A model generated the notes under the pieces. It saw only the letters and a program-made list of their open reading frames with translations, had not been told where the DNA came from and made no database searches. A stretch of 58,882 nt of DNA, the filler included, from Circinaria calcarea (Eukaryota): assembly GCA_051942165.1 (NCBI GenBank). It is 3 parts of 3 records of this genome, joined end to end, with 100 filler letters (N's around TTAATTAATTAA, not from the genome) between each part and the next. Parts side by side here need not be neighbours in the genome. Positions count along the whole stretch, not along the records: positions 19,694 to 39,262 come from JAVECS010000202.1; 2 more parts are not named here. The stretch is one strand, 5' to 3'. This document shows positions 19,594 through 39,362 of the stretch, one piece after another; position 1 is the first letter of the stretch; each line of letters starts with the position of its first letter. The position numbers were made by a program, and so were the translations under genes.

Positions 19594-19693
19594 NNNNNNN
19601 NNNNNNNNNNNNNNNNNNNNNNNNNNNNNNNNNNNNNTTAATTAATTAANNNNNNNNNNNNNNNNNNNNNNNNNNNNNNNNNNNNNNNNNNNN
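19594..19693. other. Artificial contig-joining spacer (44N + TTAATTAATTAA + 44N)
   Basis: Exactly 100 nt with a six-frame stop 12-mer at 19638-19649; identical to the spacer at 39263-39362. Confidence 0.98.
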
Positions 19694-20129
19694 GGGGAGG
19701 TGAGGGGGCTTGCGAAATTGAGATCACATGATGAGATATGCGGGGAGTAGAAAAAGGAGGGTCGGAATAGCTCGGGGATGTTTTTTTTTTTGGTGGGCAA
19801 CAAAACAATGAATATGGCACGGTTTCACCAAATAAAATTTCCTGTCTACTCCTTCAATGAACAAAAATTTGGGACCCTACTATCTACACTCATTCCCTCG
19901 GGAAAGCAGGAAACCAACCAAACCCCCCTTGAAAAATGAACCTAGTACATGGACAAATCGTTGTATCCATCCTCCTCCCTCCTCCCTGCTTTCCCATTTT
20001 CCCCTTCCCCCCCGGTCCTTGATCGAAGAACCCAGCAAACAAACAACCAACCAACCATACTTCCCCTTCTCCCCCCCCTTTCGTCTCTATCTTCTCTTTT
20101 TTTCCTCCTCTCCCTCGGTTCGTCGAGGC

Positions 20130-20161
<32 letters not shown>
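20130..20161 (+). repeat. (GA)n microsatellite
   Basis: AGAGAGACAGAGAGAG... tract downstream of DOM34. Confidence 0.9.
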
Positions 20162-20321
20162 GAAGAAAGGGGGTTAGGAGGTAATAAGTCAAGGCAGAGA
20201 GCAGAGAGCGGTAGTAGGTGGGGAGGGGGAATATGTATCGACAATGGCGTATATCACGGGGAAAAAAGAGAAAACCAAAAAAAAAACGCGGTATGGGTGT
20301 AACAATCATGTGGACAAAATT

Positions 20322-21710
20322 TCATATTCCAATTCCATTCGCTTCTTCTCCATCAATCTTCCCTAACCCTTGTCCTCCTCTTTCCTTTCCCTTTCCCTCT
20401 CCTTCTTCCCTTTCCTCCCCTTCCTCTCCTCCGTCATCCTCGTCCAGATCCTCGAGCGGAAACGTCAATATGGCCGCTATCCCGCCCAACCCCTCCAACC
20501 GCTTTCCGCTCTCATGCTCGCTGCTCAGCACTCTCACCTCGCCTCCCTCTTCCTCCCTGACCCGGTCCACCAGACGTACCCAGCGCCTCCGGATCGCCAC
20601 ATCCTGCGCGCGGAACAGAGCATTCGAAATCAGGAGAACCCCTCCCCCCTGCCCCACCGCTCCCTTGTCCACCGCACGCTCGATTTCCCTTGGCCCGTAC
20701 CACGCCCGCCCGTCGTCCTTGCGGAGCAGCGTGAGGAAATCATCCATCAGCTTCGTCTCTCGCGCGTACTTGGTGTCTTTGAGTCGGGCGAGGACTTCGG
20801 GTGACTGTAGAACTTCGTTGAGGGCGTGCAGGTGGCCGGAAGAGGCGTGCACGACAAGGAAATTTGGTTTTTGGGCGAGGAGGGCCTTGTTGCCGGTGCG
20901 GGTAGCGGTGTCGAGGATGTAGGCAAGGAAGGCGGAGGCGGTGAAGCCGGGGCTGGCGAGTAGAATCGGGAGGGATTGGGAGATATCGATTTGGCGGAGG
21001 AGGGTTTCGAGGGTGGTGTGGAAGAATTTCTCGAGGCCCTGGAGGGTGCCTTTGAGTCAGTGGTTTCATTATTTGCGCTTCTTTTCGTGATGGGGGCCGG
21101 TTTCCTTACCTTGTCGTGCCCACTTCCCCCTGTTCTCTTCCGAGGCACCTGCACCTCGACCCTCTGCCTTAGCACCGTCCTCTCCCCCGTCAGTATAGCG
21201 ATATTCGCCAATCCTTCCTGCATCACACACGCCCACGCTCCGGTTCCTTTCTTAACATCACACGCGGCTCTGACGACCTCCCTACTGATACTATCCCAAC
21301 CCTCGGCCTTTTCCAACGTAAAGTTTCTTTGTAGCTCCAGATCAAGGGTATGGTATTGGCCATTTTTCGTATATTGATTTTCTTCGGCGATTTGACCAGA
21401 TACGTGTAGTTGGGATGCAAGTGGGTCGAAGCTTGTGGATCGAACGCGGATAAGGAGGGTGGTGTGTATTCGGGTTGAGGATGTGGAGCCGGTGGCGGAG
21501 GTTGTTGTGATTCGGCGTATGGCAGAGGCGCGGAGGAGGTCCGTGGGGGAAATGAGGTTATAGGCGTGCCACTAGAGGGAATTAGTTAGTATATAAATAG
21601 GGAAAAGGGGAATTAATGAGCGTTGGAGGTACCATGTCTTCGGGGTCTTCGGGGTAGAGGGTTATAGTGCCGGAGCCATCACGCTCGATGTTCTGCTTGA
21701 TAAGTCGCAT
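20322..21710 (-). CDS. DOM34: Pelota/Dom34 ribosome-rescue factor, 3 exons (21710-21633, 21571-21110, 21038-20322)
   Basis: MRLIKQNIERDGSG..PEDPEDMWHAYNLI..GQYHTLDLE..WDS..MQEGLA..PRKR..ASPGF..AWYG..LLISNALFR..SSEHESGKRLEGLGGIAAILTFP; canonical introns. Confidence 0.95.
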
Positions 21711-21986
21711 CTTGGTATTTGAAAGTACATTGATAAAGATTGAATCACTTGGAGTGAGATGTTATATGTCTAATAATTAAGATGCAACAAGAAATGTACG
21801 GTTGGATAGAAAGCACTTCTGCTTATCGATTAGGGATAGGATATGCTTAGGGTTAATGACGTCCAAAGAGAACTTCATGCTCCAGTTTTCTGTTACGTAT
21901 TGATAGCAACCCTCATAGACTATAAGAGTTCCTAAGAGTCGCCTCTTTTCACTGTCAATTTCGACTCCTCATACATAGCACTCACA

Positions 21987-23338
21987 ATGACCAAGCTAGA
22001 CATTAACTCCAAGTATCGTATGCTTTCCGGCCATGAAATCCCTGTTTTGGGTTTCGGGGTATGTTTCATGACATTTTCTCACCTTGCATGTTGCTATCGA
22101 CTTGAATACTTACTGCGTCAATACCTTTGATGTGTCTGTCATTCTTAGCCCGTCAAGTGCCCGTGTTTTGATTTATTAATCAGTTAACAAGAAAGGATAC
22201 TAAATCCTGCTCAATGGACAGGTCTACCAAACGTACGTCCCCCAACCAACCAACAGAAACCCCAAGCACTATATCTAATCAACCATCGGGCCCGCACATC
22301 AAGCAGAAGAAGTGGTCCTCCACGCCTTCAAGACCGGCTACCGTCATGTTCGTTGCCCCTTCTCTCCATATCTAAACCAATCGCAATTCCTAACATAACT
22401 CCTTTTTCCAGGTCGATTCGGCCCGCATGTATCGTAATGAAGGTCCCTGCGCAGCTGCGATGAAGAAATCCGGTCTGCCGCGTTCAGACCTCTTCTTCAC
22501 CACCAAAGTCTACACCAAGGACATGGGTTATGACAAAACCAAAGAATCGATCGCCGCCAGCCTCAAGGAAACCGGACTCGATTATATTGACCTGTACGTA
22601 CCACCGATTACCCTCAGCTTCACTCCTCTGTACCCATTCCCAACTGTAAACATGCCCCCATCAAAAGCAAGGCAAAATTAACCTAACCCACCACCAAAGT
22701 TACCTTATCCACGCCCCCTACGGCGGACGGGACGCCCGTCTCGGCTCCTGGCGTGCCCTCGTCGAAGCCCAATCCGCCGGCCAAATCCGTTCCATTGGCG
22801 TCTCCAACTACGGCATCCATCACCTCGAAGAATTACAATCCTACATCGCCGTCCTCGAAGCCGAGCACGGCAAAGGCAAAGGCGGGCAAATCAGCGTCGG
22901 GCAGTGGGAACTGCATCCCTGGCTCGAAAGAAAAGAAATTGCCGCGTGGTGCCGGGAAAAGGGCGTGGTGTGCGAAGCCTACAGTCCCGTGGTGCAGGGG
23001 ACGCGGTTCGAAGAAAAAGTGCTGCAGCCGCTGGTCAAGAAGTACGGAAAGACGCCGGCGCAGGTCTTGCTGAGATGGAGTTTGCAAAAGGTAAGAGAGA
23101 GAATCTTTTCTTTAAAAAAGATTGGGGGAGTCTTTCCGATACTTTTATTTTCCGCCGAAGCACTGACACGGTTTGGAAACGATAGGGATTCGTCCCGCTC
23201 CCGAAATCGGTCACGCCGTCACGAATCGAAGAAAACACTCAGGTTTTCGACTTTGCACTTTCGCCGGAAGAGATGAAGTCGTTGGAAACGGGCGATTATG
23301 CCCCTGTGTGTTGGGATCCGACCACGAGCAAGGATTGA
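21987..23338 (+). CDS. Aldo-keto reductase, multi-exon with an 11-nt microexon (22222-22232)
   Basis: [91 protein letters not shown]; intron 2 acceptor reads CGG rather than CAG. Confidence 0.9.
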
Positions 23339-23954
23339 AAGAGTGTAAAGTTCCGGAACAACCGCGGATTTTCCACGGTGTATCTATACTGTCTCTCTCC
23401 TTGAAAGATTTGTGTATAACCTAAATCTAAATGGTAGTAAATAAAGCTCCCTGAATAGAAAATCACAACCCTCACCTTTGCCAATTCCTCCTCCCTAAGA
23501 AATTTTTCCCTTACCTCGATACACTACCTCTCTCCCCTTTTCAACCCCCTTTCCCTCGACACAAATCCACCCTTCACCCTCGACCCACCTCCCCGCCTCT
23601 TTCTTCATTCATTCCATTTCGCGTCTGTTCCGTTCTGCCAGCCAGCTAGTCAGTTCCGAGCATGAATCGGCCACACAGAATGAGTTGGGGAGGAGAGGAG
23701 CTGCAAGGGAGAACGGGGGGAGGGGAGGGATACGAATACGTTAGGGCCCCGAGGAAGAAAGAAGAAGAAAGAAAAGAGGTCCGATACCTCCCTCCTCTTC
23801 CTCTCCAGCATTCCCTTGTCTCCAGCATCAAGCATATTCCGTTCCTGCTGCATAGTGTTCCTCCCTCACAGGTATTCGAAGATAGAGCCTGTTTACTTGC
23901 TGCAGGGACAGCATTGTAGTGACGGTGATCTCATAAGGTGATCTGTCAAGATCG

Positions 23955-24345
23955 TAGAGTCTGGAGGGATTCTAAAGAAATCGACGGGGCCGTCTTGGAT
24001 CGTATGGTAGCAGTATAGAGCTAGCAGAAATGGTAATCCACTACCAACTACAGAATCACAGCCCGGGCAGTCACAATATGATCTTCTCATCTCTGCTTCT
24101 TAGCTATTGTGTTCTTCAATGCGTAACCGTGCCCCTGATTTTATACTCACAGGTCTTACACTATAGCCACGTTTCCAGTTCTGAATTCCTAGTCTCTCTC
24201 TGCGTACATAGAAGTAGGTGCCTAGTGTAAGCAAAGGACCCGCGCGAGCTATGTCGGTTTCCTTCTCCCTGAGGCGTTACCCGCCATGTATGCATCCTTG
24301 TTGTGCCTTCGTGGCCCTATGTCATGTAATATAGGGGTGCTGGAG
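23955..24345 (+). repeat. Diverged direct repeat, copy 1
   Basis: Colinear blocks shared with 25490-26090: AGCTAGCAGAA, AGCTATTGTG.TCTTCAAT, TTCCTAGTCTC..CTGCGTACAT, AGGTGC.TAG.GTAAG, CCCGCGC.AGC.ATGT, CTTC.TGGCC.T...ATGTAAT. Confidence 0.7.
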
Positions 24346-24801
24346 TTGGTTGTAACAAAACGTCATACCGCGGCTTATAGCTTCCTCTAAACTAATTAGG
24401 AATCGCGTTGCTCAAAGGTGCAGGGCCGTGCCACCCTTGCTTCATTATTCATGTGTAGGGACAAAGGTAGTAAGGTGAGAATTGTTGTGGGCTTGAATAA
24501 TAAAGTCCAACACTCTTTATCATGCAGGTAGTTGCAGGAACAAAGGACGATCCAGTTGCTTCCATAAGCTTCACCTGCATCTCTTTCATCAGCTAAAATA
24601 AAAAAAAACAAGCCTGGGCCTCTTAAATTTAAGCCTCCTTTCTTCACGATAACTGGGGCAGAGTTGACCGAAAAGGGACCAGAGGATAAGCCACAGCATC
24701 TTTTGCAACCTACTTCAATACCAAGGTCTCTCCATGCATTTTCCTTCTACAGACCTTGAGTAACAACTTGTGTCTAGTTTGTCCCTCTTCTTCGGATCAG
24801 G

Positions 24802-25293
24802 ATGTCAAGACTTCAGCGACTTCTTGAGTCGATTTCCAAAGGCATGAACAACCAAGCTTTACAGACAGTAATCACTGCCGGTCTTCCCGTATGGATGAAT
24901 ACAAGATTCAATAGGATGGATGCAAGATTCAATGCAGGATTCAATAAGGTGGATGCAAGATTCAACGAGGTGGATGTAAGATTCAACGAGGTGGATGCAA
25001 GATTCAACGAGATGGATACAGGATTCAATGCAAGATTCAACGAGGTGGATGCAAGATTCAACGAGATGGATATAGGATTCAATGCAAGATTCAACGAGGT
25101 GGATGCAACATTCAACGAGATGAATACAAGATTCAACAGGGTGGATGCAAGATTCAACGAGATGGATGTGGCTTTCGATAAACTCAAAGTAAGACTTGAA
25201 TCAAAGATAGACAGCCTTCGCTGGGAACTATTTGGACAAAAGCCGACAGGAGCCAGCATGCAGACCAAAGGGCTGAAGGTATTTCTCTCCTAA
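24802..25293 (+). CDS. Heptad-repeat coiled-coil protein (RFNEVDA)n, 163 aa, intronless
   Basis: About 12 R-F-N-E-V/M-D-x heptads (21-bp units, ~24895-25170) with three xFNA 4-residue inserts; open frame. Confidence 0.7.
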   Translation: MSRLQRLLESISKGMNNQALQTVITAGLPVWMNTRFNRMDARFNAGFNKVDARFNEVDVRFNEVDARFNEMDTGFNARFNEVDARFNEMDIGFNARFNEVDATFNEMNTRFNRVDARFNEMDVAFDKLKVRLESKIDSLRWELFGQKPTGASMQTKGLKVFLS

Positions 25294-25489
25294 AATTGTA
25301 ATTTCGCTCGATGGCCAGTATGGTCGTATCGAGTAAGCCACCCCTTGTAATGCTATACACGCCACCTCTCTTCATAAAACCGAGCATTCACATGGTGTTA
25401 ATACCTCCGTCTTGATATAATAAGCCTTCTGATTTGTTGTAGGAATAGTACTAATCTGAATATAGTGATAAGATACCAACGACGTTCAG

Positions 25490-26090
25490 CAAGAGTCTGT
25501 GGAGGCGAGTCTGAATTGTCCATTAGATCGCATTGGCCAAACGGCCTTATCCAAATAGAGAACATGGGATGGTATGGGAGTATTACACAGCTAGCAGAAT
25601 TGTAGTACAGCAACAATCGAGGGCCTGGCCAGAGCAGTCCTGGATGTTGAAGGTTTCGCACGGAATGGCAGCCGGAAGCTGAATTACCTGTATGGCTAGA
25701 CCTTCTACTCTCATCTCCTCAGCTATTGTGATCTTCAATACATACTCGTCCACCTCTGATCATACCCTCTTAAATCCAAGGCCATAACCATGTTGCTACT
25801 TCTCAGTTCCTAGTCTCCCTGCGTACATGGACGCAGGTGCTTAGCGTAAGTAAGATCCCGCGCAAGCCATGTGTAGTCATCTTTTCATACAAGAGGTTTA
25901 CCGTCAATATATTCTTGATATACCTCAAACGTGAAGCTTAATAAGACTTCCATCATCCAGTTACCCTTGCGGATGAGACTGTATCCAAGTCAGCGGTTCT
26001 GCTAGCCTTGATAGACTGTGGGGTGCTTTAAAGTCTAGTCAGTGATCGCTTCATGGCCTTGTATTATGTAATGCAGATGCAACTGGAAAT
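25490..26090 (+). repeat. Diverged direct repeat, copy 2 (with extra internal sequence)
   Basis: Same blocks in the same order as 23955-24345. Confidence 0.7.
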
Positions 26091-27524
26091 GAAGGGTATG
26101 GATATCGACAGAAGAAAGAATGGCAAGCCCTAGATATAGAGATATTAGGTTGAGCCAGTTTGATGTGTGTATAAACTATTGCCGGGTTCCCTGGGTACAG
26201 AGCTAGGCTAGTGAGACACTCTACCCTGCAGAGATCGCAATGCACGCTGTGGAGCGTATATATTGGCACGCTACTATATGGCTTATTTATGACTTCCATC
26301 TGTAGCTTACGTGGTAGAACCTCTACCATTAATGACAGCAAAATCCTCTTCTCAATGCTGGCGTCAATTCGGGAATACAGGCTATGGCGATGTCTCCGGG
26401 GGCCGCTCATATAGCTCCCACTGTCTGTGCGACAGTGACAACTACGGTAGATAGACTACGCTAAGTACATAGCTATGGGTTGTGCGAAAGGAAGTTTCAA
26501 TGGTTAACATCCTGCGGAAATGCGAAAATGCGAGACAGCAGAAACGCCAAAGCATCAGTTCCCAAGTGCCTTGATCGCCTAGCCACATCGCTGTCGCAAC
26601 AAGGTCGCCACCACAGCGCTGATGGCAAGAAGGTCTAGTACAATGACCATGGTTAGAATGGGTACGGCAACAAAGTCACGACCATAGCAGCAGTAACGCT
26701 ACTACAGCTCAATCATTACCTCCAAGTGGCATCGGGTATCTGCATAAGATGACATTGCAGATTCTTCGGCGTTAAAAAGGCTTCTTTTCTGACCATGTTA
26801 TCGGTTGGAATGGCAAGGAGCGGGAAGAGAATCTCCCCCCCCCCGCCGGACTCGGTTTTTCCTCTCACCCTTTGGTGTCAGGGTGCCGTTGACGGCAAAT
26901 GGGCGGATGAAAGAGGGTTGCGGAGGTGGTAGGATAACTTTAGGAAGCGGGTATTATGATTATATAAAATAACAAGGAAAAGGGATAACTTTTTTCTTCT
27001 GTTCTTGGAGAAGGGGGCAATTTGGATGTGCAGAAAGGGGCAGAGGCAGGGAAGAGGGAATAAGGACGACAAACCGGAGGTGTTTATCGTATTTCCGTTA
27101 ATATAGTCATGGGCAGCCACGCACCGGCCTACCTACCTCGGCTTGAGCCCTCGATGAACCACAAGTCAGAAGGAAACCCGCGGTACAGAGCATGTCAATG
27201 CAGAACACGCCGGTTGTAGATGTCAGAGACGCGTAGGTCAGTATGCTACTATATGAAAAAACCGTTGGCTACTTCTAGCGTCATGTTCGCCCTCGGTGTA
27301 TTTAAGCTTTCTTGCCTCTTCCTGTATGCATTTAGTACAAGTGTTATAGGTAGAAATGGTGGTTGTAGAACTTGTATATATTTGTTTGTTTGTTTGTCAA
27401 AGTGGGCAAATCTGAGTACACCAAAGGTTCCTCTTATCCCTTTTATCCCACCTTGTTCTGTACTGCAGCCACATCCGTTATCCATCTATCACTCCCAACC
27501 CCTTTCCCGCTCCCACTCCTGCAC

Positions 27525-28628
27525 TCACCACTCACAATCCTCCAGCATATCGTAATATGACTCCTTATGCGCCCTTGCGTTCTCCTTGCCATGTCGTTCC
27601 CAGTGATGTGAGTCACAATCACTAGGGTCTACCAAAGATTTTACTTTTGGTGGTTTTTTGAGAGGGGTGATTGAACATTTAGGGGTTGCAACTGGTGGAG
27701 CTGGTAAAATGAGACCTAGATCTTCTAGGTCTTCTTCCGTAAAAGTAAGGTCTTGGGTGGAGATGAATGGGATTTCCAAGGTGGTTGAAAGGGCGGGCTT
27801 TGCGTATAGGTTTGATGATTGAGTGTTTGAGTTTGGAGGCTTCGGTGGTGACTGAGGATTGGCTGCGATAGCCGGGGCCTTTGAGTTGGAGCCAGTGCCT
27901 TCGTAGTCTTCGAGGTCTTGTGATGAGAGGAGAGCGAGGTATTCTGCGACGTCATGAATGGAGGGCTGTGATGCAGGCAGCGCTGAGGCGCGGGAGTGTG
28001 GAAGAAACCGAGGAGGATGAGGAGGAGGAGGAGGAGGAGGAGGAGGGTTTGTGTTGGTGGAGGAGGATATTTCGCGTGCTATCTGTGTGCTGCTGTCGAA
28101 GAACAAAGCCCAGTCTTCCTCGTCGAGTTGGGGTGCAGGAAGGCTCTTTGGGTTGGGGATGAGATGTGGTCCATTGGCAGCTTCATTATCTTTGGAGGCC
28201 ATATTAGGAGGAAGTTCCTTTAGAGGCTCCCTCTTTGATGGGCTCTTCTCGCCTTCTTCTTTGGCAGAATCCACCTCTATCTTCCTTCGCTTCGCACATC
28301 CCTTCCGCCCGCCCTCTCCCGGCCCATCTTTCTGTCCAAAGAAGACGCCGATTCTGACCTGCCTGGGGCTAAGTTTGTCCTCCGCTTCGGCTTCCAATCC
28401 CATTCTCCTCCTCGTATCGCGATCCTTCTGCTCCCTCTCTTCTTTTTTCTTTCGATTAATGCGCCGCTGCCTGTCCTTTTCCTTGATGCGGTCTGCACGT
28501 TCTCGAAGCTGCTCCGCACGCTGCAGTCGACGCCGTTCGGCATCTGAGATGCGGGGACCGGATGCTTTCTGGTATGCCTTTTTGGCTTGGCGGAGTGTCT
28601 GCGGTTTCTGCGGAATAGGGACAGGCAT
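27525..28628 (-). CDS. Hypothetical protein, 367 aa (basic coiled-coil N-terminus, poly-Pro, disordered)
   Basis: Long ORF; PQTLRQAKKAYQK..RISDAERRRLQRAEQLRERA; repeated SSTQ/SSQDL/STQDL motifs. Confidence 0.8.
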   Translation of the reverse strand: MPVPIPQKPQTLRQAKKAYQKASGPRISDAERRRLQRAEQLRERADRIKEKDRQRRINRKKKEEREQKDRDTRRRMGLEAEAEDKLSPRQVRIGVFFGQKDGPGEGGRKGCAKRRKIEVDSAKEEGEKSPSKREPLKELPPNMASKDNEAANGPHLIPNPKSLPAPQLDEEDWALFFDSSTQIAREISSSTNTNPPPPPPPPPHPPRFLPHSRASALPASQPSIHDVAEYLALLSSQDLEDYEGTGSNSKAPAIAANPQSPPKPPNSNTQSSNLYAKPALSTTLEIPFISTQDLTFTEEDLEDLGLILPAPPVATPKCSITPLKKPPKVKSLVDPSDCDSHHWERHGKENARAHKESYYDMLEDCEW

Positions 28629-29088
28629 AGTTGACGGACGTTCAGTGGTTTGAAGAGAAATACAGCCGAATCACGTTACACACCATCTCCGACGTAATTG
28701 GTGTTTAGGGCATTGAATAGTTATGGCCGTAAGAATTGTAGGATGTTCCTCGATACTGTTGATTGATCGGAATGAGGGGCATATCCGACTGTGGGGTATC
28801 AGCTAACCCGCTACCTAGTCCTTTCCTGCAACAATACCTCTATACCTAATATGGAAGCGGCAGATTCGACTTGGGCTGAAGCGTCCTTTTCACGTTACCA
28901 GAGTGTTCCGAGTAGCAGGATTTGCACATCTAGATTACAGATATCTAGGTAATCGCCTGACACGAAACAACAATAGGACAATTCATGTCGCAGCACAAAA
29001 CTAGCTAGGGTATAGTCAATGATCACACGATAGCGCCCGTCTGGGTATTTGGACATTCCATGCTCTCTTCAGAATCCATATACGTCCA

Positions 29089-31156
29089 TCAGAACATATC
29101 AGTCAGAGCCCCATGACTCGCATCTCCAACCAAGTAAGAGTATTTGGCTAGCACGCCCCTTGTGACGGTTCTTTTCGGGCGTGTCCAGGCTCTCAACCGT
29201 TCTGCAACTTCGGCTTCACTAACGTCCATGCTTAGCTCGTTCGTCTCTGCGCTGATAGTCACCATGTCCCCATCTCGGACTACTGCAATCGGTCCACCTA
29301 CCGCGGCCTCCGGAACAACGTGACCCACGATGAAGCCATGGCTAGCGCCACTATAACGTCCATCTGTGACGAGAGCCACGTTCCTAAGTTTCGCGCCCAT
29401 AAGAGCGGCACTGGCTTTCAGCTGCTCTGGCATCCCGGGTCCACCTTTAGGCCCTTCATAGCGGACAATAAGGACAACGTTCTCTCCGTGCTTGATTTCA
29501 CCTTTGTTCAGTGCAGCATCAAGCTGAAATTCCTTGTCGAAGACACGGGCTTTGCCGATAAATTTGGTGCCTTCTTTACCGGTGATTTTAGCGACAGCAC
29601 CTCCCGGCGCGAGATTGCCACGCAGAACCTGTAGGTGGCCTGTTGATTTGATTGGATTTGAAAGTGGACGGATGATAACTTGGTCTTGTGAGAGGGATGG
29701 GAAGGATTCGACATTCTGTGCCAGTGTCTTGCCCGTAACCGTGGGAATGCCACCATCCAAGAGACCGGCTGCAATGAGAAGCTTCTGCACAGAAGGTATG
29801 CCACCAACGTCATAAAGGTCTGCCATGTAGTATTTGCCGCTTGGTGCGAGATCTGCGATAAAAGGGATCTTGTCGCTAACGCGTTGGAAGTCATCGAGTG
29901 TTAATGGTACCCCTGCGGTAGCCGCCATTGCGAGGAAGTGCACAACCCCATTAGTGCTACCGCCCAAAGCCATTGTTATGACCATTGCATTTTCGAAAGA
30001 GCGTTTCGTTAACAAATCGCGAGGTTTGATGTTCTTCTCCATACATATCCTAATGATTTCTGCAGACTTCACGCATTCACGCATCTTTGCTGGTGACGTA
30101 GCAGGAGTTGATGAAGATCCAGGGAGGGTTAGACCCATTGATTCAATGGCTGTAGCCATCGTGTTCGCGGTGTACATCCCTCCACATGCACCAGCGCCCG
30201 GGCATGCATGGTGCTCGATGTCTTCCATGATCTCATCTTTGCTCTTCGTCCTATCTCCGCCATCGTCCGAGGGTTGCTTCAAGGCATCGTATAGATAGGC
30301 CCCATGAGCTTCATAGCAGGTGGAGATATTTATAGGCTTGCGGAGGAGATTGCTATAGCCGACAGCTATGGTGCCGCCGTAAATCATTAGCGACGGTCTA
30401 TTATGGCGAGCCATTGCCATGATACAGCCAGGCATGTTCTTATCACAGCCGGGCAAGGTAATGCAGGCATCATGATGTTGAGCACAAGTCACGGTCTCGA
30501 TGCTGTCGGCGATTATCTCCCGACTCTGCAAAGAGAACCTCATGCCTGAAAGGGTCAGCCGGATTTACGTAGATGTAGATACGGAGAACATACCTTCGCC
30601 TCCCATAGTGATAGCGTCCGACACGCCAATAGTGTTATATTGCCAAGCAAGCATCCCCTGCTTCTGAACAGCATCTTTGACGGTTCTCCCGAGGTCAAGC
30701 ACTTCAGCACGAAAGATCAGATTCTCGTATTTCTCTATCGAATTGGAGAAAGCTGGGGATATCCAACGCTTCCAAGATGTCACTCACAATGCATACTGTG
30801 ATACCCATCAGCGGGCCGCTACCATAGGGAAGGTCCTTTTTGACTTACTTGCACGGATTGCCCTCCCACCACACCGATGCCACGCCCACATGGGGACTGT
30901 TTTGCATTACTTCCCGGTTCGGTACCCCAGCTGCATAGAGCATGGCCTGTTCGAGATGTTAGGTAATATCTCGGCATGGTCCCCGATACGGTTGTCATAC
31001 TTGTGCGCCAGGAAAGTCGTGCTCGTTTGTGATGGTGGAAGAGTATTTATTGAGGGCCAGTTTCCCATTTCGCATTGTGCCATGTGGTAGATGTGGGAAA
31101 TCCAGAAATCGAGGTCCTTCGGGCTCATTCTGCTTCTGCAGGTTGGAGGGATCCAT
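29089..31156 (-). CDS. Dihydroxy-acid dehydratase (IlvD/Edd family, Ilv3-like paralog), 5 exons including an 8-nt microexon 30788-30795
   Basis: ATG 31156 in GCCACCATGG context; EGNPCNMHL, SREIIADSIE, PGCDKNMPG, GACGGMYTANTM, GGSTN, GNLAPGG, YEGPKGGPGMPE, TDGRYSGASHG. Confidence 0.95.
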
Positions 31157-32119
31157 GGTGGCGGTCTTGACCTGGTGGACGCTCTCGTAAAGGTCTTACC
31201 GGGTATACACTGAGTTCTCCTCTACTGCGTTCGGAAAGAATTCTGATCTTTCGAGGACCTTCGAGGACTGGGAGGATCCACAAGCCGGCTTTGTACCATA
31301 GTCCCCAGACGCTAATACCTGCCAAACAACTGGGCTTTACCGAAGGCTAGCCGTCGCGCATGCGGTCCGCCAGGTCTGAGGTGTCACAATGTCTTCTGCA
31401 GCTTTCCTGCATTGATTTGTTGGAGGGATAACCTCGTGGGCAGTCTGTAGCGTGCCGGACCGCGGTACTCTTTGGAGGGGATAGACTGCCGTACATCCGC
31501 GGTGTTCCAAGTGCCAGGTAAAAGGTTTTCCCTCTCGTAACTCCTTGCGGGGATGGTCCCCGCCTGACCATGTTTCTGTTCCCATTTCGTCCTTGCGGTC
31601 GACTATTTTTGGTTTCTAGCGGTTTTCCCCGGATCACCAAGACGGGACGTTCAATCAAGAGCCGTGGAACGTTTTGGCCAGGGGATTGGCTTAGGTAAGC
31701 GCACCGGCTTATGGTATCACTGATTGGAGGATCAAGACTAAGCACGTGTCCTTTTCCTTTGGAAGACCTCGAACATGTATACCGGGACGGAGCGCTGCAC
31801 TTTACCATGGCAGCGCATCAAGAGATCAGGTACCAATCCGCGGAAGGACGCGGTCCTCCGATCGATCGTCGGCTAGAGTAGACCATTCTGTGCAGCTGCA
31901 GCTACACAGGTACTCAATGACGAGGGACAGCATAAGCTTAATGTCAACCAGACCTCGCCTCGTTACCGGAAAGAACAATAGGGGGAAGGTGCCTGTCAGG
32001 GTCCTACGATTGTCTTCGCTTGTGTTACCCTAAGATAAGGCAAAACGTCTTAACAGTTCTAACCAATTGGCCCTGGGAAGTAGCATTTCGAAGATAGCCT
32101 TGACCGCTTCCTACAAGAT

Positions 32120-34567
32120 ATGCCGAGCTTACGCCCGGCTCAACTGTCTATGGCTGGACATCGGCTTTGGAAATTCTTGATTCTTCACTTGACGTGGGCG
32201 GCGATCGCTGAAGCTTCCGACTCTCACCTCGTCAATGCTTCGAAGACAATCTCCCAGACTATCGGTTGGTCTGCGCAGTATTCCTATGGGTTTGTCAAAG
32301 CTGCCCTCGCCAACCGATATAGTCGCATGATTCACGGTCACTTCGGGATCTGGGATATGGCGCAGCTGTTAGCTGCCTGTAGCATTCTCCCGGCCTTCAG
32401 GCTGTGGAGGAAGCGAACCACCAAGATGGAAGGGAAGGCCTCGGAGAGGGAGAGCATCAGTGAGAGGAAGAGTATCAGCGGCTCTACCCGGCATTCCGGC
32501 ATTTTTAGTGGAAGCGCCAAAAATGGTAAGTCTTTTTGCCGACAGTCACCCTGCGAGTCCATCCCTTTTGATTGCATTCAACCGTGATAGCTGGCCAGAA
32601 AGGTTGTCAGCTATCGAATTCCGGCGGGGGTGAATTGCCAATACTACTTCATGGACGAGCTGTGATTCAACCAAGCTTCGCTACTGACATCAGGAAGACC
32701 GGCCAGTCTCAAGGATAGCAGCAGTGCCAATCGAGAAGCGAGACTAACAGTTACTCTTCCAGGCACTCTCGTAGATCCGAGCTCGACAGATCCTGGTCTG
32801 CTCAGGAAGCACTCCACGTTCAAAACATACAGGACCAACATTGCTACATATCCTTCGATCCGAACCTTCTACCGTCCTCATCCACAAGCCGATAAGCTTC
32901 CCGATAAGCCCACACCCTTGCCGCTCCTCGTCTTCGTACATGGACTTGGGGGTTCCCTAGCTCAGTTCCACCCATTGCTTACTAGTCTCGTGAATGTTGC
33001 TCCGTGCCTTGGCATCGACTTACCAGGCTGCGGCCTTTCTCAATTCTCCCCCAAAGCCTGGGAGGCTTACTCTCCAGAAGCCCTGACCGAACTCCTACGC
33101 GTCGTTATCGAAGAACACTGTGATAGAAAAAATGACCAGGGAGTAATACTGATCGGGCATAGCATGGGATGCTCTTTATCTGCATATCTCGCCTCAACTT
33201 CTTCCGTGCACGCTCAGCTCACGATCAAAGTACTTGGGCTTATTGTGATCTGTCCCCGAGTTTCTACCCCTACACGTCAACAAATAGTCACGTTTCGAAG
33301 AATACTCCAAGTGCCAACCCTTGTTTTTGATCTTTGGCGCAAATGGGATCGCAGGGGAGGCACCCAGAGTGCAAGTGTGACCAGATTCGTTGGTCAGAGT
33401 GCTGACATTGAGACCAAGAAATTGCAAGAGAAATTCAATTCGCAAAGTCAAACAGCTGTATGGCGCAGGATGGCTTGGGGCATAATGCCAATCATTCGTT
33501 CTGATGGATCTATCTCGGGTGGTCTACCTGGACCAGAAATCTGGACAGGGGTAGCAGCCCCTTTATATCTTATCGCCGGTGAAGCAGATAATGTCACCAA
33601 ACCGGAGGAGATTGCAATCCTCAGCAAATTGCTAGGAAAAGTTCAAGATCCCATTTCTATGAAGTTTAAAGGTGGAGAAGCTCCGGTCCCAGACTCTGCA
33701 GGAGGCAATCCACAAGCAAACGACCCTAATAATAAGGAATCTGCCGATCATGATGAAAAGCATGGATTGGGCCTTTCAACAACAGAGACCACTTTGCTCA
33801 GAAGGGATGCCGCCCCCTCGCCTGTTCAAGCCCGTGGGAACGCAGCGGAGTCAAGGCACCGCCAGGTCTTAAAAACTAGCATTCTCCCAAGCCCAGCCAA
33901 TCATGCTTTGCTATATGATAACGCCACGTACCGAACTTTGGCTGGCTTGATACAGGCATTCCTCGCTGAACACATCGACGCTCGTTTGTCGCTTGGGTGG
34001 CAACTGCAGCATTTATCCACGGAAGGAAAATGGGACGTCAAGAACCTTCAAAAGTGGCAGGCAGTCACACCCGTCTCGGAACCTATTGGCGGGATCTTTA
34101 GAGCAATGAAAACGCTACGAGAAATTGATGAAAAGCACAGCCCGGCAATCTTTGTGAAGGATTGGAAGGACAAGATAAAGGCTGTAATTGACATTTCGCA
34201 CGAATCTCCTTGTTACGATCCCAGGGGCCTAGAAGCTGGGGGTATCGAGTATCACAAATTTCCTACAGTGTCCAAAATACCACCAACATCAGAAGAGGTC
34301 AGAGATTTCATTGGGCTTGTTGACCGACTCCGTGAACAGCAGAAGTCGAAAGACGACCTTCGGCTGATAGGTGTACACTGTCATTATGGATTCAATCGCA
34401 CAGGCTTCTTTGTCTGTTCGTATTTGATTGAGAAAGGCGGCTTTACGGTCCAGCAAGCCATTGAGGAGTTCCAAGCGAAGAGACCACCAGGAATTCGGCA
34501 TGATCACTTCATAGATACCCTTTTCGTTAGATATTGCGTTGGATTAAAGAGAGCACCGACACTATGA
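32120..34567 (+). CDS. Alpha/beta-hydrolase fused to a Cys-based dual-specificity (DUSP11/capping-enzyme RNA-triphosphatase-like) phosphatase, ~736 aa, exons 32120-32525 and 32763-34567
   Basis: VFVHGLGG, DLPGCGLS, GHSMG, AGEAD, PANH; C-terminal VIDISH..Y..HCHYGFNRTGF..F..RPPGIRH.HFIDTL; GTAAGT..CTAAC..CAG intron keeps frame; start codon uncertain (32120 or 32150). Confidence 0.9.
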
Positions 34568-37500
34568 TCGGCCTCGCCATTAGCTCAGTTATGCTGCTAA
34601 ACATGTCCGTCAATAATGGGCGACTCAAGACCTAGATGGCCACAAGCAGCTCGTGATGCTCAAGACTATCCTCTCAACATTTCTTCATTAGCTTCTTTTC
34701 AGGTCATCCTGCTGTCGCGGGCAAGACTGGTTACCAGGCTCCGGGAAATTTTAACAGATGTCAGCCTGAGTTTGGTTCTCGTCCTTGGTTCCTCACAGTC
34801 GGCGCTGGCACTAGTATCTTTTTGCGAACCCTGCGTCAGCGGGGTAATCCGCAGATAAGGTAGCATTAGCACGAACACGTTAGAGCGCTAAGATCCATCG
34901 AAGACTAGCCACCCTTTCACTTGCAGCTCTGATGATGAAACGTGGAGGGAACAATAATGGAAGAAGTATTACTGGAACCGTCGATCAAGTTCGTATTGCG
35001 ACCACAATAAACCCCCAAAATGAGCCTGATGGACATGGGCAATGGTTTGACTTGCCGCATTCGCTGTAACTCCACGAATGGTCGACTAGGAAAGAGAGTA
35101 GATGACGCTATCAGCACAGTCCAATATTTTGTCGGCCTTATTCAGTGACCTCAATTGCCATGTGGTATCCTTTGACCTCTGCCGGCTGCGACTGCACTGC
35201 CAGGCATGGAGGCTGTAGCAATTTTCTGAGTATCCAGAGTTGCGTGTCCTTCTGCTCTGCGTCTGCGACGAGCTCCTTTCTCCTTCCTATTAATTAGGAT
35301 GACGACCCGATGAGTTGCCTCACTTTTTCTTGCAATGCACTTGGGGGTGGTCTTGTATCTATAGCCTGGGTAACTCGAGGTGCCAATCTGGATACTGTAT
35401 GATTGGGGGCCCTGCTCCGTGGCACGTCGAAACAAACACATGGCGCAAGTCATCCTGCGGCATTCTGGCGAAGACTTGCCAGGCATGGAGGGCTTGAGCC
35501 ATTCGGCATTGCCCCGCATACCACCCAGAAAGTAGATGCAACCTCCTGTTCCATCATGCAAACTTGGGCATGGCACCCTACAATATGATGCGCATGAAAC
35601 GAGGTTGGTGCTCTTTCGAGTTCGTTGATCATAAGCCTCGATGACCACAGAGCAAGTTGGACATGTGGCGCCTTTAAGCTTAAAGGAAGACTCATAGCTT
35701 TCCTTTGGAGTCCAAATTTGTAGAGAGGGTAAGCCTGGATTGTGGCGGTCCTAGGCTCATGTTACCAACTGCTGTGTAGGGTGCGGTTTCATAAATCGTG
35801 GCTTATCGCCCCCAACTCGTCGAGTTTGAAACATGATGAGGGAATTCAAGCAGTATCACAATTTAGGACAGACCAATTTGATACAGTAGGCAAGAAACAT
35901 CGAGAGGAAGTGCAGGCCTCTTGCTCCTATCAACAGGAAAATTGTCGGCTGATATATCGGCACGGATTGCTTTTCACCATGCTCACTGGGGTGGAACCAA
36001 CCCAGGGATCATGTAGGATGCCAAGTTCAATACGCGAGAGGAGGCTATAGAGCTATACATACAAAGACCACGGCTGGAGGTATGACTAACGCACTTGGAT
36101 GATTTACCTTTCCTTCGATTGCCCGTTTTGCTTTGAAAAGATTTAGCGTACGTAGGAACTCAATCATTTCCCGTCATGGTCATAGTGGCTGGACGCCTCA
36201 GCCGCGTTAGCATTGAAACTTTTATAGCTTAATTCGTCAATCGAATGGAGAAATGATGCGCCATTGGTCAGCCTGTCGATCCCTGCGGCTACTAGCTCAC
36301 TAATCCAACAGACTCGGGTAGGCGCACACGTAAGGCTTTTTGGAGCTTGACCGCAACGTTTGGTAGGCAAAAGCCAACTTTGACGTTGACGCTGCCCGTT
36401 GACCTTCCGGTGATGGCGGTGGTCTTTCACACTCACCGGCGACACACCGGTGGCTCTTTCATACCGAGGGGTGCATTCGGACTTCTGCCGTCTTCTTCCC
36501 CTGCTCTCTATTCTTGTCAACACTGCTCCACCGCTTCCCCCAACTTCCGGAGACGTTCCTGGCTCTCCCATCGTAAGCTGAGAATGGCTATTCTGATCCC
36601 AATCTGGGCTCGGCGAACGAAAAACACCAAGGGCTCCGGCCACTATCCCCGAACCTCGCACGGGAATACACACGAAAGGGGCTGATGACTGGGCGCCCGT
36701 TTGGACAGAGTAGCTCTAGAGTTGGGGCCCATGTAGTTTGCGCCAACTGGAATGTCGGTCCCTTGCTCACTCGCCGGCGGTGCAGTCGAATCGTGGACGA
36801 GGCCATCGACAGCATTCTGCACTGTAGTATCCGAGGTGATCGTCTCCAGACTCTCGTACGGGCTGATATGAAGGATGCTCTTTTCGAATGACCGGAATAG
36901 GTAGGGGGATGTCGATCCCTTACATAATCCATCGCTCGCTTCCTGCGCCTCAGCTGAAGGTCCAGTCGTTTGTCGTTTGCCGGACGACCTCTATCAACAA
37001 GTCCTCAGGCCCTAGTACTTGCTGTGCTATTCTGATACACATCCCCCGTCTCCCTCGACGGATCGAACACTGGGTCGCTTGTAGATGCCATGTTACAAAC
37101 AATCGGCTACCCTGCGCCATCGGAGGATAACCGTTTCCATGCCTCCACCCCGGCAGCCTGGTCCAGCACAACGGCTTCGACTCCAGCGGGTTGTTACCCT
37201 CCCCCGTGCATTGTAAACCAGTCACGGTATCGGTTTGTCCCTGACGACCCATCACCATGGCCCTGTCATTGTGAATCCCGGTTGCCCTGATCGCTGAGCT
37301 GATCTGTGTGTGACAGCCTGTTCGCAAGCTGACTGGTCCACCCCATTGCATACGGAGTCACCTCAGCGAACCTATGCTGCACCACTCCTCCTAGCTCCGC
37401 GGTCAACTCCGCCCATGCTTGGGTTTCCTTCCCTCGATGATTTCATATTCTCCGTCTTCTCTGTCCACAGTCCAAATCGCCTTATCCCTTAGCGGCATCA

Positions 37501-37962
37501 CCGAGGGATTTGGAGCAGATGCCTAGCCCTCGGTGCCTGGGCAGTCACGCCCCGTCCCTCCAGCATATGTCACCTTACTGTTTTAAGCCTGTCTACCTGA
37601 GGAATTAGAGTCAGAGGTCGTCCTTGTGTATATCTGCCAGATACTTGCCACATGATTCCTTTTTACTGCCTCATCATCGGCGGTCTCTGAGTAATAACCG
37701 CACGTTGGTGTTTCCTTAACTACCACATCAATTCTCTTGTTCTCTCTTTCTTATGTCCCATCAAGAGTCATACGCACATCACACCAGCAAAACAGTAATC
37801 CACTCGGATAAACTTTCACTCACCATCACCTGCACTTAACCAACTTGAAACTTGACCAATCATCCTCAGTCTAGTGAGCCAGCAAACACCCATTTACCGT
37901 CAGGCACGTCAGCATTGACCCGGCTCTCGAAGTATCATTATCAACGCCGTCATCACGGTACC

Positions 37963-38211
37963 ATGTGTCTTCAAGTCATAGAGAAGTATGCCGTCTGTGG
38001 CTGCGTCTACTACCAGCACGCTGTCGACCCGTGTGCTGCCTACGGTCAGAGAAGCCACTACACCACCCAGCGAGAAGTGCTCGTTGGATATGCCTGCTCC
38101 CATCACTCTTATCGTGGATCCCAGCCATCCTCCAGTGGTTCCAGCAGCAGGTATGCCGACTCCGGCTACTCTAGCGGCGGCAGATACTCCGAATCGTCTT
38201 TTCGTCAGTAA
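37963..38211 (+). CDS. Small Cys/His-rich protein, 82 aa (putative Zn-binding microprotein)
   Basis: ACCATG start; MC..VIEKYAVCGCVYYQHAVDPC....H.....EVLVGYAC.HH followed by a Ser/Gly/Tyr-rich tail. Confidence 0.8.
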   Translation: MCLQVIEKYAVCGCVYYQHAVDPCAAYGQRSHYTTQREVLVGYACSHHSYRGSQPSSSGSSSRYADSGYSSGGRYSESSFRQ

Positions 38212-39262
38212 TCCTACCCAAAACTACGAGGAATACATGGGCTACGGAATGAGAATGCAGAGGGCTAGGAACGCCACCATGGAAAACGACAATCATGGAA
38301 GAGGGAGATGGCAGTATGTCGTGATTGTATCAACAAGTGCCTCGGGAGGACATCGCCCTTTACCCTAGTACCGGTCTTGGCATTCCAATTGACGGAAGTT
38401 TGTCAACGATGAATTCCACTTTCCTTCAACCGCCGCGGCAAGTCCGTTGCTTTCCTTTCGCTATCACATCACAATGGAGTAGCGCTTTACCATTCTGTTT
38501 ACACGACTTTGGCCTTTTCGCCTAATGACCTGGGATCTCTTTGGGGCATTGAGTCACGCGATAACGGCGATCAGGACGTTTGGGGAGGAATGTTTTTGAA
38601 TCGGGCTGTGCCTGATAAGGGGAGTTTGTGCAATTTTACAGTTCAGCAAGCATGACTGATGTTTCCGAGTACATGGGGTTTTTACGAGGAAACAGAAAGG
38701 CATACACACGGGAGTCATGGGACGGGAGGTTCGGTTTATCTGCATGACGTGTCTGCGACATCGACAATTGGCGTTTTTTTGGATTATCCCTCACTACATT
38801 TGGATTTCTTTGCTTGCTTGAGCGTGGCATTCTTGCGATCGGTGTGTACAATAGATGTTCAGCTGCAGGCAGCAATGATCGGCTTCGCAGGGCGTTTTTT
38901 CTCGCCTAGGAGGGCTGAACTGTTTTGCCGTCTTTTTACAATGTACCCTTGGGCTTAAACATGACCTATCATTTAAACCATGTCAAATCGCAAAAGTCAC
39001 GCTTCCGAGTGACTCAAATATACAGCAAGAGAAACATCAGAGACTCCTTCTCCCATGCAATCAATGGTTGATACGCACGGGGACAGTACCCAAACCCCGC
39101 TACCCCGCGTATTCCCATGCCCAATTCGCCGGAACCGCAAATCGAGATATTCCTCAATCGGCTCTCTATTGTCAACATACCTCCACTCTCAGCTACCGCG
39201 TAACATTTTGATACCATCCCACCCATAAAGAGCCCTTCCCTTCCACTCCATCCCAGCTCAAC

Positions 39263-39362
39263 NNNNNNNNNNNNNNNNNNNNNNNNNNNNNNNNNNNNNN
39301 NNNNNNTTAATTAATTAANNNNNNNNNNNNNNNNNNNNNNNNNNNNNNNNNNNNNNNNNNNN
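39263..39362. other. Artificial contig-joining spacer (44N + TTAATTAATTAA + 44N)
   Basis: Same 100-nt construct as 19594-19693. Confidence 0.98.

Follow-up and report, generated by a model that had tools for sequence, protein, structure and literature searches.

A serine hydrolase fused to a cysteine phosphatase akin to RNA 5'-triphosphatases in Circinaria calcarea and other fungi

We analyzed a 58,882-nt stretch of DNA (the window) from the lichen fungus Circinaria calcarea (GenBank assembly GCA_051942165.1). A two-exon gene on its plus strand (32120-34567) encodes, in one chain of 736-759 amino acids, an alpha/beta serine hydrolase followed by a cysteine phosphatase that lacks the usual acid Asp and whose nearest solved relatives, by sequence and by fold, are RNA 5'-phosphatases. 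This agrees with the kinship proposed in a first-pass annotation of the window. Fungi are usually pictured as having only the metal-dependent tunnel type of RNA triphosphatase, the cysteine type being found in animals, plants and a few protists (passages of PMC2904801). From sequence comparison, the family appears to be an old offshoot of the cysteine RNA-triphosphatase scaffold among organisms supposed to lack it: a conserved enzyme of fungi whose closest kin are of the cysteine type and whose P-loop is remodeled, yet filed as a protein phosphatase in phosphatome screens. The domain call is not new, as the automatic NCBI name “RNA 5'-triphosphatase domain-containing protein” already stands on some Eurotiales orthologs (12 of the 120 Eurotiales rows listed).

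Gene structure and distribution of the fusion

The gene lies on the middle part of the window (19694-39262). The window consists of three contigs joined by runs of N (19594-19693 and 39263-39362), and genes on opposite sides of a run are not true neighbors. A single open frame of 633 codons (32666-34567) contains HGLGG at 32939, GHSMG at 33155, AGEAD at 33575, PANH at 33893 and HCHYGFNRTGF at 34376, the last four as read in the first-pass annotation. The predicted protein matches the Pfam families Abhydrolase_1 (E 7.6e-18) and DSPc (E 2.7e-11, above cut-off). Residue numbers below follow the 759-residue model (Table 1). A second in-frame acceptor at 32762 would lengthen the intron to 237 nt and give 736 residues; combined with the ATG at 32150, this predicted splice alternative yields exactly the 726-residue public model P0001, labeled Circinaria calcarea. 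The exon-1 peptide finds blastp matches (E ≤ 0.01) in 35 of 119 homologs. Because both catalytic centers share one exon, the fusion is independent of the splice model, and two separate transcripts, which the annotation had considered as a possible outcome, cannot explain it. A two-gene or read-through artifact is ruled out, with both sites in one exon and the halves fused in all listed homologs. The gene is single-copy, being one of nine DSPc matches in the C. calcarea genome.

The gene is a conserved ortholog, not peculiar to C. calcarea. Of 7999 candidates scored, 1845 proteins matched, and both Pfam families are present in 120 of the 120 homologs listed, which bears out the fusion as first annotated. 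A phosphatase-domain search of 1.84 billion representatives gave 1686 matches; of the top 150, 97 have a hydrolase match as well, and the rest are mostly short fragments or HCTHG proteins. Among 29 representatives looked up, fused proteins occur in Blastocladiella, Synchytrium, Gaertneriomyces, Clydaea, Diversispora and Candida boidinii and, outside fungi, in Creolimax, Capsaspora and two choanoflagellates. Eurotiales and a large number of budding yeasts, Candida albicans among them, contribute further fused members. Since the fusion is present in both fungi and Holozoa, it very probably predates their split. No named animal or basidiomycete member appeared among the matches listed, in listings not designed to show absence.

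Stand-alone phosphatases of 150 residues, with HCHYGFNRTG and a KW motif and without the hydrolase, are encoded on two giant-virus contigs (L012:2986-3438 and L013:2872-3333). They adjoin genes with MORN-like repeats and form a long branch in the tree described below.

Kinship and active site of the phosphatase domain

Searched by sequence against the PDB, the domain scores best with RNGTT (86 bits), BVP (58 bits) and DUSP11 (51 bits), followed by DUSP23 (36), PTEN (28) and Cdc14 (20). A family profile gives RNGTT 134 bits, BVP 106 and DUSP11 104, with 54 for the next entry, and its alignment reaches Arg9-Trp10 of RNGTT, opposite the last KW of KWxxKNxxKW. The domain model, with a predicted local distance difference test (pLDDT) score of 92.7, has a class I cysteine-phosphatase fold. 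Its nearest structures are BVP (Z 22.0; root-mean-square deviation (rmsd) 2.0 over 158 aligned residues), RNGTT (Z 20.9; 2.5 over 167) and PIR1 (Z 20.8; 2.5 over 169), whose scores are effectively tied, and then PRL (Z 18.4; 1.9 over 144), Cdc14A (17.6), PTPMT1 (16.0), PTEN (15.3) and Siw14 (11.9). Foldseek puts the same three families on top.

We also placed the domain in a tree of 48 domains and 175 columns, from which one long-branched P0257 domain was left out and in which sampling of the DUSP11 type is thin. Eight HCTHG rows form a clade that excludes the query (Shimodaira-Hasegawa approximate likelihood-ratio test 97, bootstrap 85). Checked against the PDB, P0261 is DUSP11-like and P0269 RNGTT-like, and the sole DUSP11-like row sits within this clade, apart from the query. 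Path lengths from the query are 2.5-3.7 to the eight HCTHG domains versus 4.8-6.9 to three dual-specificity phosphatases (DSPs) of its own genome, which we take, from their motifs, to be Cdc14-, PTEN- and Msg5-like. The HCHYG family is not recovered as one clade in this tree. The profile, structure and phylogeny comparison that the annotation had called for places the domain nearer to RNGTT, BVP and DUSP11 than to protein DSPs on all measures. In oomycetes, proteins P0216, P0243 and P0257 carry two or three tandem RNA-triphosphatase domains of HCTHG type, the last degenerate.

Within the P-loop, Cys698, Asn703 and Arg704 are near-invariant: each is found in 120/120 close relatives and 114/114 yeast proteins, and respectively in 135/141, 132/138 and 139/141 distant representatives (Table 1 gives its counts for these three groups in the same order, counting proteins with a residue in that column). 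Changela 2005 is said to treat the P-loop Asn as a signature of the RNA 5'-triphosphatase family. His and Tyr follow the cysteine in 477 of 479 members selected by HC[HN]YG, and unselected columns hold His in 129/141 and Tyr in 131/141. The general-acid Asp in the D/WPD loop that marks protein DSPs (Cdc14, MKP, PRL, VH1) is missing: only 2 of 465 parsed members have Asp in the equivalent loop, one of them a mis-parse. Passages of PMC9038691 describe the general acid as also missing in MCE1, BVP and DUSP11. Beyond the P-loop, motifs of the RNGTT type persist (N-terminal K/R-W, F..(M/L)KT, (I/V)D(I/L)(S/T), Y.. and RPPGI), many conserved Lys and Arg surround the site, and the position before His738 is Arg or Lys in 456 of 460 parsed members. 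The protein ends about 55 residues beyond the P-loop. In modeled fold and predicted chemistry, the domain resembles RNA 5'-triphosphatases.

Judged by these alignments, the phosphatase stands nearer RNGTT than DUSP11 and falls outside both subfamilies. The annotation's label of “DUSP11/PIR1-type” does not survive the profile scores (134 versus 104 bits), the His at the Arg192 site or the His-Tyr, in place of Thr-His, in the P-loop. With RNGTT/Mce1 (1i9s, 2c46; aligned over Arg9-179) the domain has in common HC..GFNRTGF, RPPGI, the N-terminal RW/KW and the missing acid Asp. Unlike RNGTT, the fusion protein has no guanylyltransferase, carries its phosphatase behind an alpha/beta hydrolase, has His-Tyr for Thr-His and adds an extra KWxxKN. 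BVP (1yn9), the top fold match, shares the P-loop Asn and conserved Lys and Arg, but is a stand-alone viral protein of 168 residues with HCTHGINRTGY and with Arg, where the fusion has His, at the Arg192 place. DUSP11/PIR1 (4jmj, 4mbb, 4nyh) likewise has the P-loop Asn and no WPD acid; the fusion differs in its RPPG for the RGH motif, its P-loop Tyr for His, its attached hydrolase and its branching outside the HCTHG set. Siw14 and the PFA-DSPs are also acid-less cysteine phosphatases that act on a phosphoanhydride, but their fold is distant (Z 11.9, 14% identity) and their P-loop is another one.

The hydrolase domain and the hydrophobic N-terminus

The apparently complete hydrolase triad of the first-pass annotation is borne out by the sequence, with Ser292 and the candidate residues Asp434 and His539 conserved in Ser-Asp-His order, together with a G-x-S-x-G elbow, an HG oxyanion motif and an alpha/beta fold. 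In a two-domain model (pLDDT 87.5; predicted template-modeling score, pTM, 0.86), a disordered insertion separates Asp and His. Because the pTM is high, the model suggests that hydrolase and phosphatase are packed in a fixed arrangement. Fold matches of the hydrolase are generic esterases spread over Z 28.5-24 (MAGL 25.7, ABHD6 25.3), among which no solved structure stands out to indicate a subfamily.

S. cerevisiae Ldh1 (YBR204C) and S. pombe C57A10.08c, which we take to be hydrolase-only proteins without the phosphatase half, have lent their names automatically to members of the fusion family. Database labels of yeast orthologs read “Lipid droplet hydrolase 1” in 2 and “triacylglycerol lipase” in 3 of 120 rows listed, and C57A10.08c is among the other automatic names. 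Published accounts have Ldh1 as an esterase and lipase of lipid droplets (passages of PMC11878206, PMC6921030 and PMC4882453). As a lead from automatic labels, the hydrolase is probably kin to Ldh1. Two Atlas searches on this point returned generic hydrolase clusters only, with Ldh1 absent from the returns.

In some members the hydrolase serine is gone and the P-loop is kept. The distant members P0203, P0217, P0234, P0240 and P0154 keep the P-loop beside a degenerate hydrolase, and P0134 and P0169 have Asp at the nucleophile Ser position. At one fungal locus (L031:2348-3620), a full hydrolase frame stops at the phosphatase start, by natural loss or decay, and no phosphatase match occurs in the next 1.9 kb.

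Of the hydrophobic N-terminal segments noted in the first pass, two are present, and they are modest, with best Kyte-Doolittle (KD) values of 1.42 in a 19-residue and 1.44 in a 17-residue window. Within exon 1, conservation is highest in the second helix. Among Met-start proteins that carry both motifs, a KD value of 1.5 or more over 17 residues is reached by 49 of 53 close relatives, 60 of 88 Eurotiales, 22 of 50 distant representatives and 4 of 112 yeasts. A membrane anchor is plausible in filamentous fungi on these hydropathy values; with so few yeast members reaching this value, membrane association does not hold for the family as a whole.

Orthologs in studied fungi and candidate substrates

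The ortholog in A. fumigatus Af293, EAL88066.1, is 52.5% identical over 691 residues. Six DSPs are known in A. fumigatus, and four belong to other families (passages of PMC4502386 and PMC7445287), which leaves Afu1g03540 (DspB) and Afu1g13040. In C. calcarea, an Ilv3B-type dihydroxy-acid dehydratase gene stands head-to-head with the fusion gene, about 960 nt away, and such a gene adjoins the fusion in 9 of 22 fungal loci (2.5-kb flanks). A. fumigatus ilv3B is AFUA_1G03550 (passages of PMC3445565), next to Afu1g03540. Because four DSPs are excluded and ilv3B synteny is kept, DspB (Afu1g03540; A. nidulans AN4057) is very probably the A. fumigatus ortholog, its locus tag being linked by elimination and synteny. 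The dspB deletion is viable, with SakA phosphorylation like wild type, and under iron starvation shows less growth and lower siderophore-gene expression (passages of PMC4502386). In C. albicans, the ortholog matched by sequence is orf19.782 (C1_04640W), filed as a protein tyrosine phosphatase (PTP), and NCU05049 (dsp-5), listed as lacking an available mutant, may be the N. crassa ortholog. The passages on DspB and orf19.782 file them as protein DSP or PTP and mention neither a hydrolase domain nor RNA-triphosphatase kinship. Consistent with the annotation, which knew of no functional characterization, we found no experimental study or assay of the family in the literature searched, mostly outside subscription journals. 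Deletion strains probably exist already. In the Eurotiales, gene models P0413 and P0520 run together with ribosomal protein S19e or bear its name, which suggests a neighboring rps19.

A role in mRNA capping is ruled out. The C. calcarea genome has a Cet1-type triphosphatase gene and a separate Ceg1-type guanylyltransferase gene, on another contig, so the fusion is not needed for capping, and the knockout of the probable ortholog is viable. The annotation's premise that fungi cap mRNA with Cet1-type enzymes fits these genes.

We tentatively favor a reading in which the phosphatase domain trims uncapped 5'-polyphosphate RNA via a phospho-cysteine. Its esterase partner would cleave lipid esters and hold the protein at the endoplasmic reticulum (ER) or lipid droplets. 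In this single chain with two active sites, from an old opisthokont family, Cys698 would attack the terminal phosphate and Arg704 and Asn703 would hold it, making a metal-independent phosphoanhydrase by analogy with RNGTT, BVP and DUSP11. With a phosphate as the leaving group, a general acid would be unnecessary. The likeliest substrate would be uncapped RNA with a 5'-triphosphate (5'-PPP) or 5'-diphosphate (5'-PP) end in the cytosol, for example Pol III or viral transcripts, and not mRNA for capping nor specifically small RNA made by RNA-dependent RNA polymerase (RdRP). The N-terminal domain would be an active serine esterase or lipase, probably Ldh1 kin, packed on the phosphatase and placing it at membranes. 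We infer the activities, the substrates, the location and the coupling of the domains, RNA as the natural substrate included. If RNA is the substrate, fungi would be able to turn over 5'-PPP RNA much as DUSP11 does.

Several points weigh against this reading. The P-loop has Tyr in place of a His that is reportedly essential in BVP. It fits the HCxxGxNRTG pattern on which the annotation relied, but in nearly every member two residues differ from the published family consensus HCTHGXNRT (passages of PMC5785229). His738, a His in all 460 parsed members, takes the place of DUSP11 Arg192, which passages of PMC12058148 link to beta-phosphate removal and describe as not present in capping enzymes. 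The missing acid Asp does not single out RNA, because PTEN, CDC25 and Siw14 likewise work without a WPD acid (passages of PMC9038691), and 43 of 465 parsed members have Glu in the acid loop. The fusion protein has no RNA-binding or guanylyltransferase domain (no such guanylyltransferase match in Pfam), the Z margin over PRL is modest (2.4-3.6), and the 48-domain tree gives no resolved root. Moreover, the iron-starvation phenotype of the probable ortholog does not point to RNA. As for the link to Ldh1, a hydrolase-only alignment run against metagenomes brought up no hydrolase-only yeast ortholog; it returned fungal loci with the fusion and hydrolases of low score, most of them high in GC.

The serious rival, to us less likely than the favored reading, is a double enzyme of lipid metabolism that cleaves some small non-RNA phosphoanhydride at membranes, whether an isoprenoid, dolichyl or diacylglycerol pyrophosphate, an inositol pyrophosphate or an NTP. 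Soluble epoxide hydrolase has an analogous layout of phosphatase plus alpha/beta hydrolase. The esterase partner is conserved across fungi and Holozoa, the hydrophobic N-terminus recurs outside the yeasts in the proportions given above, and the His-Tyr P-loop, KWxxKNxxKW and His738 suggest a remodeled pocket; acid-less Siw14/PFA-DSP enzymes can act on inositol pyrophosphates (passages of PMC9038691). Yet Siw14, PTPMT1 and PTEN score well under the RNA enzymes in fold, the conserved pocket residues are basic and not hydrophobic, viral copies stand alone without a lipid domain, and the anchor is lost in yeasts. Were lipid or inositol pyrophosphates the substrate, an RNA-triphosphatase scaffold would have been turned to a new use. 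That the protein is an ordinary protein-directed or phosphoinositide DSP, as filed in fungal phosphatome papers, seems unlikely to us. The DSPc match above cut-off, the DSP/PTP listings in A. fumigatus and C. albicans, PRL as the next fold match, and the handling of monoesters by PTEN and CDC25 without a WPD acid (passages of PMC9038691) would fit such an enzyme. However, the acid Asp is missing here while the Cdc14- and PTEN-type proteins of the same genome have one, the P-loop Asn and all similarity measures favor the RNA enzymes, and SakA phosphorylation in the dspB mutant is like wild type (passages of PMC4502386).

We consider it very improbable that the protein is a fungal counterpart of PIR-1, dephosphorylating RdRP-made 5'-PPP small RNAs for Dicer/Argonaute, a role that nematode PIR-1 has (passages of PMC5785229). 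C. calcarea does have RdRP genes (12 matches on 5 contigs), but Saccharomycotina are reported without RdRP (passages of PMC4290597), and all 114 budding-yeast members keep the P-loop Cys, Asn and Arg intact. RdRP-made small RNA therefore cannot be the conserved substrate, and the small-RNA role suggested in the first pass falls in so far as it is tied to RdRP. The Arg192 equivalent, the residue of beta-phosphate removal, is missing as well. A bolder form of the favored reading, trimming of 5'-polyphosphate RNA, strikes us as a long shot: fungi would never have lost the cysteine-type RNA 5'-triphosphatase, which would have been fused to a lipid esterase since before the animal split and tethered to ER or lipid droplets, with both packed sites acting serially on one substrate, for example an RNA or nucleotide with an acyl or lipid group on its 5' polyphosphate end. 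If true, 5'-end processing would include an unrecognized step at membranes, overlooked because baker's yeast seems to retain the esterase half only.

Elsewhere in the window, an open reading frame of 367 codons lies at 27525-28628 on the minus strand, with no Pfam match. Among the other phosphatase loci of the assembly, PTEN-like and further DSP loci occur as near-identical duplicates (L004/L005, L007/L008) on different contigs, which suggests two haplotypes or strains.

Table 1. Features of the fusion gene and its divergent neighbor, in window positions
Feature	Position	Strand	Remarks
Exon 1	32120..32525	+	135 codons + 1 nt; variable N-terminal region; alternative ATG 32150
First hydrophobic stretch, residues 16-30, signal-peptide-like	32165..32209	+	KD 15-window 1.52
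Second hydrophobic helix, residues 75-93, then basic RLWRKR; possible anchor	32342..32416	+	KD 19-window 1.42
Intron GTAAGT...CAG	32526..32693	+	168 nt, predicted; gives 759 residues
Exon 2	32694..34567	+	one open frame with both catalytic domains
Alpha/beta hydrolase domain with cap	32780..33979	+	Pfam; model pLDDT 87.5; esterase folds Z up to 28.5
Oxyanion motif HGLGG	32939..32953	+	sequence motif
GHSMG nucleophile elbow, Ser292	33155..33169	+	Ser 120/120, 111/114, 74/83
AGEAD, candidate triad Asp434	33575..33589	+	Asp 120/120, 114/114, 93/102
Variable insertion of low confidence separating candidate triad Asp from His	33641..33841	+	segments with pLDDT <50
PANH, candidate triad His539	33893..33904	+	invariant in alignment A1; His 120/120, 114/114, 101/109
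Cysteine phosphatase domain, RNA 5'-triphosphatase type	34028..34546	+	sequence, profile, fold, tree
Basic motif KWxxKNxxKW, family-specific	34028..34057	+	443/479 members
Acid-loop equivalent KFPTVSKIPP	34256..34285	+	no Asp; conserved Lys663
P-loop HCHYGFNRTGF	34376..34408	+	Cys698, His699, Tyr700, Asn703, Arg704
RPPGIRH	34481..34501	+	RNGTT-like RPPGI; His738 at DUSP11 Arg192 place
Divergent neighbor, Ilv3B-type dihydroxy-acid dehydratase gene	29089..31156	-	Pfam; synteny marker only

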